Shown here: piece after piece, positions 8,729-19,189 of the stretch | Position numbering within the stretch: the first letter of the stretch is position 1 | Layout of the letters: each line of letters opens with the position of its first letter | Origin: a virus | Lineage: Duplodnaviria > Heunggongvirae > Uroviricota > Caudoviricetes | Virus record (IMG/VR): IMGVR_UViG_2872180393_000006 | Location: 1-19,189 of that record | DNA: 19,189 nucleotides | Strand: one strand, 5' to 3' | Position numbers and translations under genes: made by a program | Notes under the pieces: generated by a model | What the model was told of the DNA's origin: nothing | The model's input: only the letters and a program-made list of their open reading frames with translations | Databases searched by the model: none

Positions 8729-9031
8729 TTAACGCGTATTTTTCAGCGACTCCTGTGCAAAATACGCTGTTGCTTTTTTTAATATATCTCGCTCAAGGCG
8801 AGCTTCATTTAACGCCTTACGCAGTTGCAGAATTTCAGATTCCAGTTCAGCCACCGTGCGGGAACCAGGAGTACCGAGCCCTTTTCTGGCGGCGGTAACC
8901 CATTGTCCTAAAGTGCCTTCAGGAAGGGATAATCGGGAAGCGCCTTCACTGATCGAAAGTTGATTTTCAGGAACCGTTCTGACAGCTTCGGCTTTGAACT
9001 CTTTAGAGTAACGTTGGGTTTTTCTGCTCAT
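8729..9031 (-). CDS. IS600 OrfA (HTH transposase subunit)
   Basis: 100 aa, MSRKTQRYSKEFKAEAVRTV..., ending shortly after the A7 slippery site. Confidence 0.9.
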   Translation of the reverse strand: MSRKTQRYSKEFKAEAVRTVPENQLSISEGASRLSLPEGTLGQWVTAARKGLGTPGSRTVAELESEILQLRKALNEARLERDILKKATAYFAQESLKNTR

Positions 9032-9280
9032 TATTAGCTCCTTCTGATGCCATTCTATTTCAGGAAGGAGTGTCCGTTAAACTCAGGCTACCTCACAGCC
9101 GAAACCTCCAGCGCCTCCGGCATGGGCAATGATGCCACCGTCGAACTCTCTCCAGTTGCTGGACGAAACGTTCTCGGTATCCGGGACGGAATCATCAGCG
9201 ACCAGACAGCATTGAGAATGCTTCAGGAGTACATCAGGATCCAATGCCTTGGGGGTGCCCCTATTAAGTTGTCAAGCATG

Positions 9281-10475
9281 TTATGACCCCTGCGGGGTAT
9301 AAAAAGTCCCGTCGCGCATCATGGCGAACAGAACGTCGCAGCGTCGTCTCGCCAGGGCGATAAGCGCCTGATTGTGTCGTTTTCCCTGACTCATTTTGCG
9401 GGTGTAGTAAGCCCTGGAGAGCGGATCCCTGAGCGCGGCGAAGGCCGACAGGAACAACGCCCGTTTGAGAGCTTTATTACCCCGTCGCGAGGGATGCTCA
9501 CCGCGTATTGACGAGCCGGATCGCCGAGTTACCGGCGCAAGGCCAGCATAAGCAGCGAGATGTGCGGCAGAGGCGAAGGCGCGGCAGGCGACCTCGGTGA
9601 GGAGTCTGGCTGCGGTCCTGACACCGACTCCGGGCATACTGGTCAGGACCGGGTAAAGAGGGTGAGCAAGAACTCGCTGTTCTACCTCAAGCGCCACCTC
9701 GTCTCTTTGCTTACGCAGCGTGATGAGCTGGAGTGCCAGACGTGGCAGTACTACGGCAGCGGCATTCGTGCCGGGAACGACGACGGTTTGTTCGGCCAGT
9801 GCCTGAGCTATGTCTGCTGCAAGGCGTTTACCCAGACGAGGCGCAAGTTTGCAGAGCTGGGCTGCCAGCTTCTTCTCACCCAGCGAAGCGAGTTTTTCTG
9901 GTGAGGGATATCGCTGGAGAAGATCGAGTACCGCCGGGTGCTCAAGTCTCGGACCGAGAACGCGCTCCAGTGCCGGATGTATCTGGGTCAGAAGGCCGCG
10001 GATACGGTTGCTGGCCTGCGTTGTCTGTGCGGCAAGATCATCATCGACCGCAGAGCATGGAGAGTTCGGCGATTTGCTCGTCAGCCAGTTTCAGCGTGCG
10101 TAGCGCGTGAGGCAGGGTACGGGCAGCTTCGGCAATGATGGCAGCGTCACGAGCATCAGTTTTAGCTTCACCGGCGTGTAAGTCGGCTATGCGGCGCATG
10201 GCCAGTCCAGGGAGGTATCCGACAAGGACTCCTTCTGAGCGGGCAACGGCGACAGGTAACGCACCGATGGTAGCTGGCTGATCAACAACCAGCAGTATCT
10301 GACCATGTTGTTTCAGGTCAGATATTAGCGACCTGAGTTTGTTTTCGTCGTTGGGTAATGCTTTATCGAACAGGCGTTTACCTGAACGATTAATGGCAAC
10401 AGCGTGATGCGTATCTTTACCGACATCAACGCCGATAAAGACCTGGACGGATTCGTAATCGCTGGATTCGGTCAT
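9281..10475 (-). CDS. IS110-family DEDD transposase, reading frame interrupted at the same place as in copy 1
   Basis: ORFs 10041..10475 and 9281..9697 give the same 144-aa and 138-aa products as in copy 1. Confidence 0.8.
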
Positions 10476-10484
10476 TCTGTCTCC

Positions 10485-10684
10485 CTTGTATATGGGTTAA
10501 CCAGATAACCACGGGGAGCAGGTACCGGCATCCACGTTACAGACGGTCCCGGCAAAAGTGCCTGACCTGACCCCTATTAGCGGTTACCAGCGCCCCACCA
10601 GACCCGGTGACATCACCCCCCGGATCATGGACGACTGGGGGCAGTAATCATGCCGGGTCTGGCTGGCTAACACCCCATTATAAG
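10485..10684 (-). ncRNA. Predicted bridge RNA region of IS110-family copy 2
   Basis: Same left-end non-coding sequence as copy 1; see feature 3600..3800. Confidence 0.3.
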
Positions 10685-10794
10685 GGGTACGAATAAAGTA
10701 ACGGGGCGGTAATTTTACTCATTATCCTTCAAATCAGATTCTGTTGTCAGAGGAATGGGGGAAGCTGGATTCGCAAGAGCTTTTTATGGGCAGT

Positions 10795-11307
10795 TTAGCT
10801 AAAAAAAGGCAACACGAAGCTAAAACTACCAACATAAAGTGCTGACCAGCTAGCAGCTGAAATCAGACTCACTGTATACACTTTCACTGGATGAAGTTGC
10901 AACATTCCTGCCACCAAAGGAGCAATATAACGCAGCACGGCGATAAAGCGCGAAGTGAAAAGTATTGACACAGAGTTATTTTGCAACTGAAGGCGAACCC
11001 GTTCTATTGTATTGGAACGACTCGATATTATACATGCAAGTTGAGGGATATGCCCAATTATTATACCAAGATGGTAATTAACGATAGTACCGCACCATGC
11101 GCCACTCATGACCGTGATTCCAGCTTCCCATGGTGAAAGAGTCGTCTTGCTGACTGTAATTATAGTGGCCATCATAATTGATGCTGGTGGCAATATCGCC
11201 GAAATGAGTAAAGTGGATTTTGTGAACGCTATTATAAAAAGAAGCCCCCATAGGCGATATGGATGAAGTACAAAATAGTTCATCAAAGCATTTATCCACT
11301 CCATCAA
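10795..11307 (-). CDS. DedA-family (SNARE-associated/TVP38-like) inner membrane protein
   Basis: 170-aa hydrophobic ORF with the DedA-like motif ...FTSRFIAVLRYIAPLVAGM... and an AGGAAAG SD. The surrounding DNA is noticeably AT-rich compared with the flanking phage sequence. Confidence 0.55.
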   Translation of the reverse strand: MMEWINALMNYFVLHPYRLWGLLFIIAFTKSTLLISAILPPASIMMATIITVSKTTLSPWEAGITVMSGAWCGTIVNYHLGIIIGHIPQLACIISSRSNTIERVRLQLQNNSVSILFTSRFIAVLRYIAPLVAGMLQLHPVKVYTVSLISAASWSALYVGSFSFVLPFFS

Positions 11308-11541: not shown

Positions 11542-12806
11542 TGAGGTAGCCTGAGTTTAACGGACACTCCTTCCTGAAATAGAATGGCATCAGAAGGAGC
11601 TAATAATGAGCAGAAAAACCCAACGTTACTCTAAAGAGTTCAAAGCCGAAGCTGTCAGAACGGTTCTTGAAAATCAACTTTCGATCAGTGAAGGCGCTTC
11701 CCGATTATCCCTTCCTGAAGGCACTTTAGGACAATGGGTTACCGCCGCCAGAAAAGGGCTCGGTACTCCTGGTTCCCGCACGGTGGCTGAACTGGAATCT
11801 GAAATTCTGCAACTGCGTAAGGCGTTAAATGAAGCTCGCTTTGAGCGAGATATATTAAAAAAAAGCAACAGCGTATTTTGCACAGGAGTCGCTGAAAAAT
11901 ACGCGTTAATCGAACAATGGCGACAACAATTTCCCATTGAAGCGATGTGTCAGGTATTTGGTGTATCCAGGAGCGGTTATTACAACCGGGTACAGCATGA
12001 ACCCTCAGACAGAAAACAAAGTGATGAGCGGCTAAAACTGGAGATTAAGGTGGCACATATCCGCACTCGCGAAACATATGGAACCCGGCGGCTCCAGACG
12101 GAGCTGGCAGAGAATGGCATCATCGTTGGTCGTGACCGACTGGCACGTCTTCGTAAGGAGCTAAGGCTACGCTGTAAGCAGAAACGCAAGTTCAGAGCGA
12201 CTACGAACCCGAACCACAATCTGCCAGTTGCGCCAAATCTGCTGAACCAGACGTTCGCTCCTACAGCACCAAATCAGGTCTGGGTGGCGGACCTGACGTA
12301 TGTTGCCACACAGGAGGGATGGTTGTACCTCGCTGGCATCAAAGATGTTTATACGTGCGAAATTGTCGGCTACGCCATGGGAGAGCGCATGACAAAAGAG
12401 CTGACAGGTAAAGCCCTGTTTATGGCGCTCAGGAGCCAGCGCCCACCTGCCGGGCTAATCCACCACTCTGATCGAGGTTCACAGTACTGCGCATACGATT
12501 ACCGGGTCATACAGGAGCAGTTTGGTCTGAAAACATCAATGTCGCGTAAAGGTAACTGTTACGACAACGCTCCGATGGAAAGCTTCTGGGGAACGCTGAA
12601 AAATGAGAGCCTGAGCCACTATCGTTTTAATAACCGGGATGAAGCCATCTCAGTAATACGGGAATACATTGAGATTTTCTACAATCGTCAGCGTCGTCAC
12701 TCTCGTCTGGGGAATATCTCCCCGGCAGCCTTCAGGGAAAAATATCATCAGATGGCTGCTTAAAAAAAGAACAAATGGTAGTGTCCGCTATTGCCAGTAC
12801 ACCTCA
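11542..12806 (+). mobile_element. IS600 (IS3 family), copy B, 1265 bp, divergent from copies A and C
   Basis: Same termini as the other copies. It has several amino-acid differences and an A8 run at 11857..11864 instead of A7. Confidence 0.9.
11606..12763 (+). CDS. IS600 transposase, orfA and orfB fused in-frame (385 aa) by one extra A in the slippery run
   Basis: The ORF track shows a single 385-aa ORF reading ...ERDILKKSNSVFCTGVAEKYALIEQW...MCQVFGV..., which is the sequence expected for the frameshifted OrfAB product. Confidence 0.85.
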   Translation: MSRKTQRYSKEFKAEAVRTVLENQLSISEGASRLSLPEGTLGQWVTAARKGLGTPGSRTVAELESEILQLRKALNEARFERDILKKSNSVFCTGVAEKYALIEQWRQQFPIEAMCQVFGVSRSGYYNRVQHEPSDRKQSDERLKLEIKVAHIRTRETYGTRRLQTELAENGIIVGRDRLARLRKELRLRCKQKRKFRATTNPNHNLPVAPNLLNQTFAPTAPNQVWVADLTYVATQEGWLYLAGIKDVYTCEIVGYAMGERMTKELTGKALFMALRSQRPPAGLIHHSDRGSQYCAYDYRVIQEQFGLKTSMSRKGNCYDNAPMESFWGTLKNESLSHYRFNNRDEAISVIREYIEIFYNRQRRHSRLGNISPAAFREKYHQMAA

Positions 12807-15289: not shown

Positions 15290-16135
15290 ATGTTGAATGT
15301 AGCTATTGAAAACCAGAACGGGTGGAATTATAGTGCACCTGCACCTCATAAAACGGGTGCCGGGATTGCTACCCCGAAGTCATTCACGGCGCATAACCGC
15401 GCTCAGGCGGTTTTTTTATGCGTAATGCACAGCCACATTCAAATTATGGTGGGGCGTGCGGGGCAGTCGCAAGACTGGCCGGGTTCCGTGATGACCGGTT
15501 GTAGCAACCCTGTACGTCTCACCACCCATGAGATTGCTACCTCCGGTGGTGAGTTAATCAAATTCATCGCGGAGGCTGCCATCATGGCTACTACCCTTTC
15601 TCACCCTTGTGTAACCGTAGAAAACGGTCGCGCTGTCACTACGTCTGTTGCGGTTGCAGAGTTCTTCCACAAACGACACGACAATGTGTTACGTGCCATC
15701 GCAAATATTGAATGCTCAGATAAATTTACTGCCCTCAATTTTGAGGCGAGCGAATACACCGACTCAACCGGGCGCAAACTCCCAATGTACCAAATCACCA
15801 AAAACGGCTTCGTTTTCCTGGTTATGGGATTCACTGGCAAAAAAGCCGCTGCATTCAAAGAAGCCTACATTGCTGAGTTCGACCGCATGGAGGCCGAACT
15901 GCGCCAGAATAACACCCCACCTGCTGACAAGATGATTCCGGGTGATGGTCGCACTCTGGTTGTTCACTTCGACAAATTCGGCAATGTCGAATTCACCGAA
16001 ACCGTTCCTGATGGCGCACTGGTCTGTAGCCTGGAGACTTTCCGGTTTTATCTGGAAAAACAGGGATGGACTCTTGTTAACCGGGGCGCAATTAAAAATA
16101 TGACTGTGGAACAATTACTCAAAATTCATTGTTGA
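15290..16135 (+). CDS. Phage regulatory protein Rha family; the Rha domain starts near residue 100, so the start may instead be the ATG at 15584
   Basis: VTTSVAVAEFFHKRHDNVLRAI...FTALNFEASEYTDSTGRKLPMYQITKNGFVFLVMGFTGKKAAAFKEAYIAEFDRMEAEL is a classic Phage_pRha signature. ATG 15290 has an AGGAAAGAG SD and ATG 15584 has a GGAGG SD; the N-terminal 98 codons have no recognisable domain. Confidence 0.6.
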   Translation: MLNVAIENQNGWNYSAPAPHKTGAGIATPKSFTAHNRAQAVFLCVMHSHIQIMVGRAGQSQDWPGSVMTGCSNPVRLTTHEIATSGGELIKFIAEAAIMATTLSHPCVTVENGRAVTTSVAVAEFFHKRHDNVLRAIANIECSDKFTALNFEASEYTDSTGRKLPMYQITKNGFVFLVMGFTGKKAAAFKEAYIAEFDRMEAELRQNNTPPADKMIPGDGRTLVVHFDKFGNVEFTETVPDGALVCSLETFRFYLEKQGWTLVNRGAIKNMTVEQLLKIHC

Positions 16136-16145
16136 GGACGCAATA

Positions 16146-16334
16146 ATGGAGACGTTATTACCAAACGTTAATACGTCTGAAGGTTGTTTTGAAATTGGTG
16201 TCACTATCAGTAACCCTGTATTTACTGAAGATGCCATTAACAAGAGAAAACACGAACGGGAGCTATTAAATAAAATATGCATTGTTTCAATGCTGGCTCG
16301 TTTACGTCTGATGCCAAAAGGATGTGCACAATGA
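16146..16334 (+). CDS. dicB: Cell division inhibitor DicB (62 aa)
   Basis: METLLPNVNTSEGCFEIGVTISNPVFTEDAINKRKHERELLNKICIVSMLARLRLMPKGCAQ is near-identical to E. coli K-12 DicB as recalled. GAGGA SD; start 10 nt after the Rha stop. Confidence 0.9.
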   Translation: METLLPNVNTSEGCFEIGVTISNPVFTEDAINKRKHERELLNKICIVSMLARLRLMPKGCAQ

Positions 16335-16522
16335 ATACAGTATTTGCACTCGTTCTGACGGTTTTTCTTGTTTCCGGTGAACCGGTTGACATGGTTACTG
16401 GCGTATACAGCTCAATGAAAGAATGTATGACTGCCGCAGCGAAACAGAAAATTCCCGGTGACTGTTATCAGGTCGATAAAGTTATTCACCATGATAATAA
16501 CGAAATCCCGGCAGGTCTTTAA
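16331..16522 (+). CDS. ydfD: YdfD-like small membrane/lysis protein (63 aa)
   Basis: MNTVFALVLTVFLVSGEPVD...DKVIHHDNNEIPAGL. The start overlaps the dicB stop (ATGA); the track ORF 16277..16522 has an N-terminal extension that is probably not used. Confidence 0.75.
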   Translation: MNTVFALVLTVFLVSGEPVDMVTGVYSSMKECMTAAAKQKIPGDCYQVDKVIHHDNNEIPAGL

Positions 16523-16606
16523 AACAGTTCCGTAATAAATATCCGGTTTCATTCTTATATGCCAGCAATGGCAGGGGTTCGCTCAACCTTAATTAAGGAG
16601 AAAAAC

Positions 16607-16732
16607 ATGATTACCAGTTATGAAGCCACTGTTGTAACTACTGATGACATTGTTCACGAGGTTAATCTGGAAGGAAAGCGTATTGGCTACGTGATTAAGA
16701 CAGAAAATAAAGAAACCCCATTCACTGTGTGA
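16607..16732 (+). pseudogene. N-terminal stub (41 codons) of a ydfE-like gene, cut by IS600 copy C
   Basis: ATG at 16607 with a strong SD (TAAGGAG, 6-nt spacer) encoding MITSYEATVVTTDDIVHEVNLEGKRIGYVIKTENKETPFTV. The stop codon TGA (16730..16732) is the first three bases of the IS600 terminus. Confidence 0.55.
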
Positions 16733-16754
16733 GGTGTACTGGCAATAGCGGACA

Positions 16755-17591
16755 CTACCATTTGTTCTTTTTTAAAGCAGCCATCTGATGATATTTTTCC
16801 CTGAAGGCTGCCGGGGAGATATTCCCCAGACGAGAGTGACGACGCTGACGATTGTAGAAAATCTCAATGTATTCCCGTATTACTGAGATGGCTTCATCCC
16901 GGTTATTAAAACGATAGTGGCTCAGGCTCTCATTTTTCAGCGTTCCCCAGAAGCTTTCCATCGGAGCGTTGTCGTAACAGTTACCTTTACGCGACATTGA
17001 TGTTTTCAGACCAAACTGCTCCTGTATGACCCGGTAATCGTATGCGCAGTACTGTGAACCTCGATCAGAGTGGTGGATTAGCCCGGCAGGTGGGCGCTGG
17101 CTCCTGAGCGCCATAAACAGGGCTTTACCTGTCAGCTCTTTTGTCATGCGCTCTCCCATGGCGTAGCCGACAATTTCGCACGTATAAACATCTTTGATGC
17201 CAGCTAGGTACAACCATCCCTCCTGTGTGGCAACATACGTCAGGTCCGCCACCCAGACCTGATTTGGTGCTGTAGGAGCGAACGTCTGGTTCAGCAGATT
17301 TGGCGCAACTGGCAGATTGTGGTTCGGGTTCGTAGTCGCTCTGAACTTGCGTTTCTGCTTACAGCGTAGCCTTAGCTCCTTACGAAGACGTGCCAGTCGG
17401 TCACGACCAACGATGATGCCATTCTCTGCCAGCTCCGTCTGGAGCCGCCGGGTTCCATATGTTTCGCGAGTGCGGATATGTGCCACCTTAATCTCCAGTT
17501 TTAGCCGCTCATCACTTTGTTTTCTGTCTGAGGGTTCATGCTGTACCCAGTTGTAATAACCGCTCCTGGATACACCAAATACCTGACACAT
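16755..17591 (-). CDS. IS600 OrfB with a 6-codon C-terminal extension caused by loss of the native stop
   Basis: 278 aa ending ...YHQMAALKKNKW, against ...YHQMAA in copy A; TAAAAAAAG in copy A reads TTAAAAAAG here. Confidence 0.85.
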   Translation of the reverse strand: MCQVFGVSRSGYYNWVQHEPSDRKQSDERLKLEIKVAHIRTRETYGTRRLQTELAENGIIVGRDRLARLRKELRLRCKQKRKFRATTNPNHNLPVAPNLLNQTFAPTAPNQVWVADLTYVATQEGWLYLAGIKDVYTCEIVGYAMGERMTKELTGKALFMALRSQRPPAGLIHHSDRGSQYCAYDYRVIQEQFGLKTSMSRKGNCYDNAPMESFWGTLKNESLSHYRFNNRDEAISVIREYIEIFYNRQRRHSRLGNISPAAFREKYHQMAALKKNKW

Positions 17592-17626
17592 CGCTTCAAT
17601 GGGAAATTGTTGTCGCCATTGTTCGA

Positions 17627-17929
17627 TTAACGCGTATTTTTCAGCGACTCCTGTGCAAAATACGCTGTTGCTTTTTTTAATATATCTCGCTCAAGGCGAG
17701 CTTCATTTAACGCCTTACGCAGTTGCAGAATTTCAGATTCCAGTTCAGCCACCGTGCGGGAACCAGGAGTACCGAGCCCTTTTCTGGCGGCGGTAACCCA
17801 TTGTCCTAAAGTGCCTTCAGGAAGGGATAATCGGGAAGCGCCTTCACTGATCGAAAGTTGATTTTCAGGAACCGTTCTGACAGCTTCGGCTTTGAACTCT
17901 TTAGAGTAACGTTGGGTTTTTCTGCTCAT
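17627..17929 (-). CDS. IS600 OrfA
   Basis: 100-aa product identical to that of copy A. Confidence 0.9.
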   Translation of the reverse strand: MSRKTQRYSKEFKAEAVRTVPENQLSISEGASRLSLPEGTLGQWVTAARKGLGTPGSRTVAELESEILQLRKALNEARLERDILKKATAYFAQESLKNTR

Positions 17930-17993
17930 TATTAGCTCCTTCTGATGCCATTCTATTTCAGGAAGGAGTGTCCGTTAAACTCAGGCTACCTCA

Positions 17994-19189
17994 ACATTCG
18001 CATCTGGTTCATGTTTCGAGGAAAACGATGTCGGGAAACATTGAAAGGCTGGGAGATTACTAACAGTAACATTAAAAAGGCCGGGAATTTAAGAGCGTTG
18101 ATAGTTCATGAAATCAGTTCCGGTGAATTTGAGTATTTAAGACGTTTGCCCCAGTCCAGCACTGGGGCAAAAATGGTGACAACGAGGGTCATAAAAACAT
18201 TCGGGGAGCTTTGTGATATCTGGACAAAAATTAAAGAGACAGAGTTAACAACAAACACAATGAAGAAAACGAAATCACAATTAAAAACACTAAGGATAAT
18301 AATTTGTGAGAGTACCCCGATATCGCATATTCGTTATAGCGATATCTTAAACTACCGGAATGAACTGCTGCATGGAGAAACGCTTTACCTAGATAATCCA
18401 AGATCCAACAAAAAAGGAAGAACCGTGCGCACAGTTGATAACTATATCGCCCTGCTCTGTTCGTTGTTACGTTTTGCGTATCAGTCGGGATTTATATCAA
18501 CCAAACCATTTGAAGGAGTAAAAAAATTACAGCGAAACAGAATAAAGCCTGACCCGTTATCTAAAACAGAATTCAATGCATTAATGGAAAGTGAAAAAGG
18601 ACAGAGCCAAAACTTGTGGAAATTTGCCGTTTACTCCGGGCTTCGTCACGGGGAACTGGCAGCTCTGGCGTGGGAGGATGTGGATTTCGAGAAGGGAATT
18701 GTGAATGTCAGAAGAAACCTGACGATACTTGATATGTTCGGTCCCCCAAAAACAAATGCCGGGATCCGGACGGTAACATTACTGCAGCCGGCTCTTGAAG
18801 CACTGAAGGAGCAATACAAACTGACCGGGCATCATCGCAAAAGCGAAATCACTTTTTATCATCGGGAGTACGGCAGAACTGAAAAGCAAAAACTGCATTT
18901 TGTTTTCATGCCCAGGGTGTGTAACGAAAAACAGAAACCTTATTACTCGGTAAGCAGTTTGGGTGCAAGATGGAATGCAGCAGTAAAACGTGCTGGTATT
19001 CGCCGCCGTAATCCGTACCATACGCGACATACTTTTGCCTGCTGGCTGTTGACGGCAGGAGCGAACCCGGCATTTATAGCCAGCCAGATGGGGCATGAAA
19101 CTGCGCAAATGGTGTATGAAATTTACGGTATGTGGATTGATGACATGAACGACGAACAGATAGCCATGTTGAATGCGCGGTTATCGTAG
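17994..19189 (+). CDS. Lambdoid prophage tyrosine integrase (IntQ/IntR-like), 5'-truncated by IS600; reading frame open from inside the IS
   Basis: The C-terminus has the tyrosine-recombinase catalytic region (...LRHGELAAL...HTRHTFACWLLTAGANPAFIASQMGHETAQMVYEIYG...). Native sequence begins ...IRIWFMFRGKRCRETLKGW; the first in-frame native ATG is at 18011. The stop codon is the last three bases of the window. Confidence 0.8.

Follow-up and report, generated by a model that had tools for sequence, protein, structure and literature searches.

An IS600-marked deletion between racC and intR, with accidental reading-frame junctions, in a Rac-family prophage remnant of Shigella boydii

How did a copy of IS600 come to lie between the stub of an early-left gene and an integrase gene at one end of this prophage, and can the prophage still excise? 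The original prediction, made from the stretch of 19,189 nucleotides analyzed here (the window), held that an IS600 insertion had created two fortuitous translational junctions, with a ydfE-like open reading frame (ORF) stopping on the IS terminus and an ORF from the other IS end reading into an IntQ/IntR-type integrase, and that the prophage was probably locked in place. The account that we consider well supported and very probable is that of a deletion marked by IS600, with accidental junctions at both IS ends and without a capacity for directed excision.

The last 11,245 bases of the window match the Shigella boydii chromosome CP026846.1 at 100%, and a cryptic prophage of the Rac family, located in ttcA, has its int-proximal end at the right end of the window. 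Downstream of the window, the loci with the same junctions carry ttcA, dbpA and zntB. Rac has its left attachment site at the 5' end of ttcA (PMC4632033). The 26-bp Rac att core (AAGAAAGAACAATACAACCTGAACAA) was located 76 nt beyond the window end, ttcA and the core being found together 52-101 nt downstream. The search for att core repeats past the window end, which had been proposed as a check, thus recovered the core without a partner: the ttcA copy was the only one in the window and all fetched loci when up to four mismatches were allowed, and no partner att site was found in the 19-kb window or the 10 kb downstream. The window prophage has RacR/YdaS/YdaT-type and DUF1391 genes upstream, and dicB, the DUF1482 gene and racC' lie on one strand as a common early-left operon, the order of which runs on to racC, recE, xisR and intR in an Escherichia coli O121 locus. 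IS600 copy B is a rearrangement boundary that cuts off the far side of the prophage. The features of the region are listed in Table 1.

Table 1. Features around the racC'-IS600-'intR junctions (window coordinates)
Feature	Position	Strand	Basis or remark
dicB	16146-16334	+	DicB gene calls in identical loci; upstream context
DUF1482 ydfD-like gene	16277-16522	+	Pfam DUF1482 and gene calls in identical loci
racC' stub, codons 1-41 of the 91-codon racC, with IS600-supplied TGA	16607-16732	+	40/41 to K-12 RacC
IS600 copy C (IS3 family), 1264 bp	16730-17993	- (transposase)	99.5-99.7% identical to copies A and B
orfB of copy C	to 16755	-	Pfam rve, rve_2, rve_3, HTH_21
orfA of copy C	17929-17627	-	Pfam HTH_Tnp_1
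414-aa chimeric ORF: 16 IS600-encoded residues (MPFYFRKECPLNSGYL), then IntR residues 14-411	17945-19189	+	
Promoter-like site of the IS600 transposase	17950-17978	-	Consensus match, the only promoter-like one close to the junction; directed into the IS, away from intR
'intR, native codon 14 to stop	17994-19189	+	393/397 to K-12 IntR from residue 15
Internal ATG, native Met20, in beta-strand 2 of the arm-binding domain	18011-18013	+	

The coordinates, the IS boundaries, the 41-codon stub ending on the IS TGA and the 414-aa ORF from 17945 were all reproduced base for base. The stub comprises 41 sense codons (16607-16729), and the first three IS bases supply its stop codon (TGA, 16730-16732). 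Copies A (7832-9095) and B (11542-12806) of IS600 in the window align with copy C over exactly its span, and copy C is 99.7% identical over 1264 bp to a PGAP-annotated IS600 in another fetched locus (L001). Homology to the intact O121 locus ends at precisely the two limits of copy C, 16730 and 17993. The end adjoining racC' starts with TGAGGTGTAC, the intR-side end is the one upstream of orfA, and both the length and the imperfect terminal inverted repeats (TG...CA; ends TGAGGTGTACTGG... and ...CAGGCTACCTCA) fit IS600. The products of orfA and orfB are presumably fused by a programmed frameshift, as is normal for IS600; two loci with the same junctions (L003 and L011) have copy C called as a single 385-aa transposase, as long as the IS600 transposase with programmed frameshift that PGAP annotates in L001.

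The names given to the two flanking genes had to be corrected, to racC from ydfE and to IntR from IntQ. The stub is identical to K-12 RacC (b1351, 91 aa) at 40 of 41 residues (98%), it matches phrog_4778 at positions 1-41 of 91 only (E = 9e-25), and phage records annotate it as 'protein RacC'. Full-length RacC rebuilt from the O121 locus matched NCBIfam NF007306 (PRK09790) over 1-91/91 with 201 bits against a cut-off of 171. By these matches the stub is a truncated member of the RacC family, short of an end-to-end profile match; intact racC reads GTTGATATCGAC from codon 42 onward. K-12 ydfE (b1577) showed no similarity to the stub (BLASTP E = 21), the two having in common only their position downstream of a ydfD-like gene. 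Likewise, the integrase is 99% identical (393/397) to K-12 IntR from residue 15 and 41% identical to IntQ, and its attachment site lies in ttcA rather than at the Qin site.

Comparison with intact loci also changed the account of the IS itself. IS600 does occupy the junction as predicted, but not by simple insertion: the main event is a deletion, marked by copy C, which spans about 4.2-4.4 kb and takes in everything between racC codon 41 and intR codon 14. The window lacks 4155 bp relative to the intact E. coli O121 locus and 4445 bp relative to that of K-12, with homology resuming exactly that far on. The O121 order is dicB'-DUF1482-racC-recE-gam-AAA ATPase-DUF1187-xisR-intR-ttcA and that of K-12 Rac is racC-recE-recT-ralR-rcbA-xisR-intR-ttcA, the two differing between recE and xisR. 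By comparison with these gene orders, the deletion appears to have removed recE and its neighbors, the excisionase gene xisR, and the native transcription and translational-coupling signals of intR.

The ancestral order on one strand would have been dicB - DUF1482 - racC - recE - (recombination/accessory genes) - xisR - intR - attL/ttcA. The present structure would most likely have arisen by homologous recombination between two IS600 copies in direct repeat, of which one lay after racC codon 41 and the other in intR codon 13/14; such an exchange would delete the intervening DNA and leave a single IS that lacks a target-site duplication. The same product could also have come from an adjacent deletion that one IS600 copy promoted. 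Copy C is flanked by GTG and ACA without a 3-bp target-site duplication, as would be expected of a deletion product. We take the IS600 target duplication to be 3 bp from ISfinder data and from one example in the same locus of another fetched sequence (L018), where GAC/GAC flanks a different IS600 insertion; our literature search found no statement of its length. When the 3-bp flanks of the three window copies were compared for an inversion or deletion partner, none matched. No intermediate genome was found, neither one with IS600 in racC and recE-xisR kept nor one with IS600 in intR alone, and all long contigs encoding the exact 41-aa stub already have both junctions.

A different origin would be the joining of two prophages by an IS600-mediated inversion or translocation, which would have brought a Qin-type dicB-ydfD-'ydfE' module next to a Rac integrase. 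Such an event would fit the facts that dicB and the DUF1482 gene are Qin genes in K-12, that the dicB region and intR are about 600 kb apart in E. coli CFSAN029787, and that IS600 copies A, B and C of the window all lack a target duplication, copy B being a rearrangement boundary. However, the stub is racC, a Rac gene, and O121 carries dicB' through intR-ttcA collinearly in a single prophage, with a left flank that matches the window at 99.7% identity. Both flanks and their common orientation are therefore explained by a simple internal deletion, and we regard the joining of two prophages as improbable.

Both junctions of the deletion are identical in seven assemblies, all named S. boydii, which differ by 0-2 nt. 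Four of them are multi-megabase records (CP119446.1, CP026846.1, CP026845.1 and CP026877.1), and the other three are contigs from whole-genome shotgun sequencing, with lengths of 20 kb, 113 kb and 3.3 Mb. With a 200-nt query across each junction, neither was found in 5426 complete E. coli genomes (no record at least 80% covered), so that this collection has no precursor of the scar either. Since IS600 occurs in many copies and its ends interrupt short-read contigs (L013-L017), a collapsed repeat could in principle have joined racC' falsely to 'intR during assembly. Against such an artefact, the seven assemblies with identical junctions differ in their upstream structures, which suggests that they were assembled independently, and draft contigs terminate inside the IS with the same left junction. 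We rejected this explanation as highly improbable.

How much of the integrase has been lost? The original prediction estimated about a dozen N-terminal codons, and alignment to intact homologues gave exactly 13 (MSKLPTGVEIRGR; codons 9-13 are ...GAGATTAGAGGTAGA). Codons 1-16 of the chimera lie wholly within the IS, in accordance with the 16 IS-encoded residues first proposed, and the first base of codon 17 (AAC, Asn) is the last IS base. That base is the same as in native intR, which leaves the junction ambiguous by 1 nt. The possibility raised at the outset, that the integrase is complete from the ATG at 18011 with the IS merely in its promoter, would be compatible with the in-frame position of this ATG and the intact ORF downstream of it. 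However, every full-length (411-aa) cluster member read, like all diverse homologues, begins with the native MSKLPTGVEIRG. Relatives with identities as low as 46-50% have their start 19 codons before 18011 and share a conserved LPTGVEI(R/H)G, of which P5, G7, V8 and E9 show no variation across the 13-sequence homologue alignment. The search behind these alignments used a 116-aa N-terminal query and returned mostly fragments, which suffices for N-terminal conservation and does not amount to a deep family alignment. Position 20 in the homologues is Met, Ile, Leu, Thr or Lys, with no conserved start, and Met20 lies inside the predicted beta-2. The PGAP start of intR is 2 nt past the xisR stop, and the Arm-DNA-bind_2 match covers profile positions 11-65 of 65, with positions 1-10 missing. 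The homologue alignments rule out a complete integrase from 18011, and we give this possibility practically no weight.

In the AlphaFold model of the intact IntR N-domain (pLDDT 85), beta-1 spans residues 8-11, beta-2 14-21 and beta-3 24-29, and the arm-binding domain of 'intR accordingly lacks its predicted first beta-strand. The window allele also has Leu at native position 65, where the homologue alignment has an invariant Phe. The catalytic domain is present: Pfam Phage_integrase (PF00589) covers residues 208-394 (E = 3e-23), and the Arg, His-x-x-Arg and Tyr motifs are found as GLRHGE, HTRHTF and YEIYG. IntR resembles lambda Int and other heterobivalent tyrosine recombinases in its predicted three-strand sheet and helix (residues 8-56) followed by core-binding and catalytic domains, and in excisionase-dependent directionality. 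For the arm domain this likeness is an analogy from the Pfam family and the model: the domain had no match in a sequence search of solved structures, and Foldseek with the N-domain model against the PDB returned nothing significant, with the arm-type 3ju0 and 3jtz and AP2 domains at E > 0.2.

The two translational junctions can be explained by the IS600 termini. Every IS600 end begins with TGA, by which one in three incoming frames is stopped at once, and a start codon occurs in two of the three frames leading outward from the other end (ATG 17945 and GTG 17968). The stub stops on the IS terminus because of this TGA, and the chimeric ORF owes its existence to an outward open frame at the IS end upstream of orfA, whose ATG happens to be in register with intR. 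Both junctions are chance by-products, no more than expected by chance, and were rightly called fortuitous. Simple consensus tests were used for ribosome-binding and promoter signals. The racC' ATG at 16607 is preceded by a strong Shine-Dalgarno match (AAGGAG; -9.2 kcal/mol for the duplex), the ATG at 17945 has none upstream (+1.3 kcal/mol), and the ATG at 18011 has a weak one at best (-2.2 kcal/mol). The native intR ATG, 2 nt past xisR, likewise has no Shine-Dalgarno match. No promoter-like site was found on the + strand in 16400-18300, and transcripts of the early-left operon (dicB-racC) may read through the IS.

Could the chimera, or a form starting at Met20, nevertheless be made and be functional, acting on the Rac att sites, as an arm-independent enzyme, in keeping the remnant mobile or in a new role? 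In the catalytic and core-binding regions the identity to K-12 IntR is 99%, read-through could supply a transcript, and the chimeric ORF is open in all seven assemblies, in three 414-aa alleles (WP_078167058.1, WP_119181862.1 and WP_088895306.1). The open frame is uninformative on selection because the seven assemblies differ so little. Set against a functional product are the lack of a good Shine-Dalgarno match and of a promoter-like site, the predicted loss of beta-1, the substitution at the invariant position 65 and the lack of a partner att site within 19 kb. Lambda Int without its arm-binding domain retains cleavage and the resolution of junctions and is not known to carry out att recombination. 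Moreover, xisR is deleted, and XisR (YdaQ) is the Rac excisionase, needed for efficient excision; its deletion cuts Rac excision 9- to 14-fold (PMC4632033). A working chimera is therefore very unlikely in our view. We infer that this 414-aa ORF should be regarded as a pseudogene, wrongly taken for an intact integrase by annotation pipelines.

These observations bear on the claim that the prophage is locked in place, which they support for a different main reason. In the native setting 'intR would be followed by ttcA with the att core, which are present, and preceded by xisR, which is absent. The remnant should be incapable of directed excision because it has no excisionase and no native promoter, the intR-xisR coupling is lost and beta-1 is missing; normal excision is very unlikely. 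The loss of xisR outweighs the 13 missing codons as the reason.

The locus resembles K-12 Rac in the 5' end of ttcA with the 26-bp core, in the integrase (99%) and racC (98%), and in order and orientation. It differs in that IS600 replaces 4.4 kb, xisR and the rec genes are absent, the dicB/DUF1482 module stands in place of K-12 kilR/ydaE, and the far side is cut by IS600 copy B. K-12 Qin (dicB-ydfD-ydfE'-IS2E-intQ') has a very similar scar downstream of dicB and ydfD, in which an IS remnant separates an early-left gene that has been cut short from an integrase pseudogene missing its 5' end, and this Qin-like layout is probably behind the gene names first proposed. Unlike the present locus, Qin has IS2 instead of IS600, ydfE instead of racC, an integrase of 41% identity and another attachment site.

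The scar is a case of ordinary IS-driven prophage decay. Five IS families, IS600 among them, have expanded in all Shigella, where IS600 is also a major cause of pseudogene formation (Hawkey et al. 2020, PMC7373316), and Shigella genome decay proceeds mainly by IS-flanked deletions and gene truncations (PMC7373316). The scar in the window is no different in kind and adds one more instance: IS expansion in Shigella erodes and immobilizes cryptic prophages, in this case through loss of the Rac excision module. It also has value for annotation. NCBI lists all three chimera alleles as intact integrases, the window allele exactly as WP_078167058.1, 'tyrosine-type recombinase/integrase [Shigella boydii]', and prophage finders and pseudogene counts would therefore score the remnant as having a whole integrase.

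A broader suggestion would be that IS600 may recurrently create expressed N-terminal fusions, the IntR chimera being a translated, arm-defective recombinase with residual or new activity; we hold this to be very unlikely. In CP026766.1, the same xisR-intR pair has been hit independently by IS600, IS1 and IS3-type elements, and the second outward start frame of the IS600 end upstream of orfA is used in an independent insertion there.

We delimited IS600 copy C, the element between a racC stub and the integrase, from copies A and B elsewhere in the window, which match it at 99.5-99.7% identity across exactly its span, from the alignment with an intact E. coli locus, in which homology ends at 16729 and restarts at 17994, and from its minus-strand orfA (HTH_Tnp_1) and orfB (rve), as expected for IS600. 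When the junction ORFs, their starts and the IS end were rechecked, all coordinates of the original prediction were right (see the table). The stub had been called ydfE-like, but this label was rejected because BLASTP revealed no similarity to K-12 ydfE (E = 21), whereas 40 of its 41 residues are identical to K-12 RacC (b1351, 91 aa). The full-length form, reconstructed from an intact relative, aligns with phrog_4778 and NCBIfam NF007306 over their full length and is labeled 'protein RacC' in phage records. The integrase, previously described as IntQ/IntR-type, is by sequence comparison IntR of the Rac prophage (393/397 identity to K-12 IntR from residue 15 onward, only 41% to IntQ). The earlier gene names probably came from a parallel scar in K-12 Qin (L006 4079-6709), where ydfE', an IS2E remnant and intQ' follow downstream of dicB and ydfD. 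Qin and the Rac-type prophage are two unrelated lambdoid remnants, yet the same stretch has been struck by IS elements in both.

Features of the window at and around the three IS600 copies
Feature	Coordinates	Orientation	Details
IS110-family element	3578-5032	inverted to the second copy	~1458 bp
IS600 copy A	7832-9095		flanks in IS orientation CTG/GTA
IS110-family element	9251-10706	inverted to the first copy	~1458 bp
DedA/VTT-domain gene	10795-11307
IS600 copy B	11542-12806	inverted	flanks in IS orientation AAG/ACC
Rha/ASH (antirepressor-like) ORF	15290-16135		mechanical ORF, 281 aa
isrK Hfq-binding RNA	15341-15417		Rfam, 64.8 bits
C4 antisense RNA	15442-15529		Rfam, 79 bits
racC stub	ATG 16607, TGA 16730-16732		41 sense codons
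IS600 copy C	16730-17993	transposase on minus strand	1264 bp; flanks in IS orientation TGT/CAC
IS600-IntR chimera	17945-19189		414 aa
GTG within IS600 end	17968
Internal ATG	18011		native IntR Met20

The main event at copy C is a deletion. The E. coli O121 locus (L002, CP119441.1) holds a single collinear prophage with the order dicB'-DUF1482-racC-recE-gam-AAA ATPase-DUF1187-xisR-intR-ttcA, and the order in K-12 Rac is racC-recE-recT-ralR-rcbA-xisR-intR-ttcA. The left flank of the window is 99.7% identical to the O121 locus as far as racC codon 41, and homology restarts on the right at intR codon 14; the DNA absent between the flanks amounts to 4155 bp measured against O121 and 4445 bp against K-12. 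Copy C is flanked by GTG and ACA without a 3-bp target duplication, which is in keeping with an origin by deletion rather than by simple insertion, and an independent IS600 insertion at the same locus in CP026766.1 does have a GAC/GAC duplication. The most economical route would be recombination between an IS600 copy in racC and a second, directly repeated one in intR, with loss of the intervening DNA; an adjacent deletion driven by one IS600 copy would have the same appearance. Since no intermediate genome was found among 5426 complete E. coli genomes or contigs encoding the 41-aa stub, we only infer the recombination route. Target duplications are absent at all three IS600 copies in the window, and no flanks match between different copies, so each copy apparently marks one endpoint of a rearrangement or deletion, with its partner outside the window. 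The 'intact' O121 comparator is itself decaying: its otherwise intact racC (6375-6651) carries a frameshift in a poly-A run (A9), IS1 interrupts dicB, and recE is annotated as partial.

The window integrase is truncated at the N terminus, as had been proposed. All full-length (411-aa) cluster members read start with MSKLPTGVEIRG(K/R)(Y/N)IRIWFMFRG, relatives as distant as 46-50% identity share that start point, and in the PGAP annotation intR starts 2 nt past the xisR stop. The Pfam Arm-DNA-bind_2 match is limited to profile positions 11-65 of 65. The alternative of a complete integrase starting at the internal ATG, which shares the frame of the 414-aa ORF, was rejected because homologues start earlier and the residue at the Met20 position is variable, whereas P5, G7, V8 and E9 are invariant in a 13-sequence homologue alignment. 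When the intact N-domain was modeled with AlphaFold (mean pLDDT 85), residues 8-11, 14-21 and 24-29 formed strands and residues 37-56 a helix; the deletion therefore removed the modeled strand 1, and a Met20 start would additionally cost most of strand 2. Fold comparison of this model with solved structures gave nothing significant, only weak hits to arm-type domains of other integrases and AP2 domains, and the N-domain sequence matched no solved structure. The homologue alignment also shows an invariant Phe at native position 65, which is Leu in the window allele; this allele further carries Glu in place of the Gly found in the nine full-length members read (VCNGKQK).

The translational junctions at copy C are not meaningful. 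On the left, the stub ORF, whose ATG is preceded by a strong Shine-Dalgarno match (-9.2 kcal/mol), stops on the first three IS bases. Both IS600 ends start with TGA, so that one of three incoming frames terminates immediately at the terminus; the remaining two terminate 6 and 19 codons in. On the right, 16 codons of the chimera, which reaches the final base of the window, come from the IS, and the first base of codon 17 (AAC) is the final IS base, identical to that in the native gene. Of the three outward frames at the IS end upstream of orfA, two offer a start codon, the ATG of the chimera and the GTG; the GTG frame also yields an IS-IntR fusion ORF in CP026766.1. In that different Shigella-sized genome (L018, 1818-11385), the xisR-intR pair has been independently destroyed: IS600 lies 9 nt before the intR ATG, with the GAC duplication divided between two IS600 copies, intR itself is interrupted by IS1 and an IS3-type element, and a 152-aa ORF from the IS600 GTG (MSVKLRLPQ...) runs into intact IntR residue 1.

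A Shine-Dalgarno match is absent at the chimera start (+1.3 kcal/mol) and at the internal ATG (-2.2 kcal/mol), and also at the native intR start, which is coupled to the xisR stop; this coupling is lost in the window. A simple consensus scan detected no promoter-like site on the plus strand between 16400 and 18300, and near the junction the only such site is that of the transposase itself, directed away from intR. Because these were simple consensus scans, transcription from the dicB-racC operon may possibly continue through the IS into the intR remnant.

That the prophage is locked in place, as the original prediction held, is well supported, and for stronger reasons than those offered there. 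XisR is the Rac excisionase, and deletion of xisR cuts excision 9- to 14-fold (PMC4632033). The window lacks xisR, the transcription signals upstream of intR and strand 1 of the arm-binding domain, and its allele also carries Leu65. The 414-aa protein is probably inactive. Over its final 11,245 bases the window shows no difference from the Shigella boydii chromosome CP026846.1, in which ttcA, dbpA, ynaL, zntB, dgcM and smrA follow the integrase as in K-12. The 26-bp Rac att core, derived by comparing K-12 attL with attR, lies 76 nt past the window end within the 5' end of ttcA, in agreement with the published attachment site (PMC4632033), and no second core was found in the window or 10 kb downstream. 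The DedA gene, between an IS110-family element and copy B, is rare: just 21 of the 5426 complete E. coli genomes have it, usually on a plasmid, and in those genomes it is unlinked to the Rac-type prophage. Copy B thus marks the boundary of a rearrangement, leaving a Rac-type remnant of only ~6.4 kb.

Seven assemblies with differing upstream structures carry both junctions in identical form: CP119446.1, CP026846.1, CP026845.1, CP026877.1, PSSR01000001.1, AFGE01000031.1 (S. boydii 5216-82) and the draft LPTQ01, in which each junction lies on its own contig. Neither occurs in the 5426 complete E. coli genomes, and all three 414-aa alleles (WP_078167058.1, WP_119181862.1 and WP_088895306.1) are S. 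boydii by NCBI name, so the scar is a marker passed down within an S. boydii lineage. Every aspect of it is of an already known kind; IS600 belongs to a set of five IS families that have expanded in Shigella, where it is a main cause of gene loss (PMC7373316). The sole practical point is that the chimera passes as an intact integrase, since NCBI labels all three alleles 'tyrosine-type recombinase/integrase [Shigella boydii]'.

The two IS110-family copies flank phage tail genes and IS600 copy A, and the 4.2 kb between them could be inverted by recombination; their transposase frame is split into short ORFs in the window, and the gene is intact (398 aa) in the related CP119446.1. The isrK and C4 RNAs both lie within the 5' part of the Rha/ASH ORF, a region resembling the P1/P7 immI-type c4-ant module, and the true start of the Rha/ASH protein is probably downstream of them.
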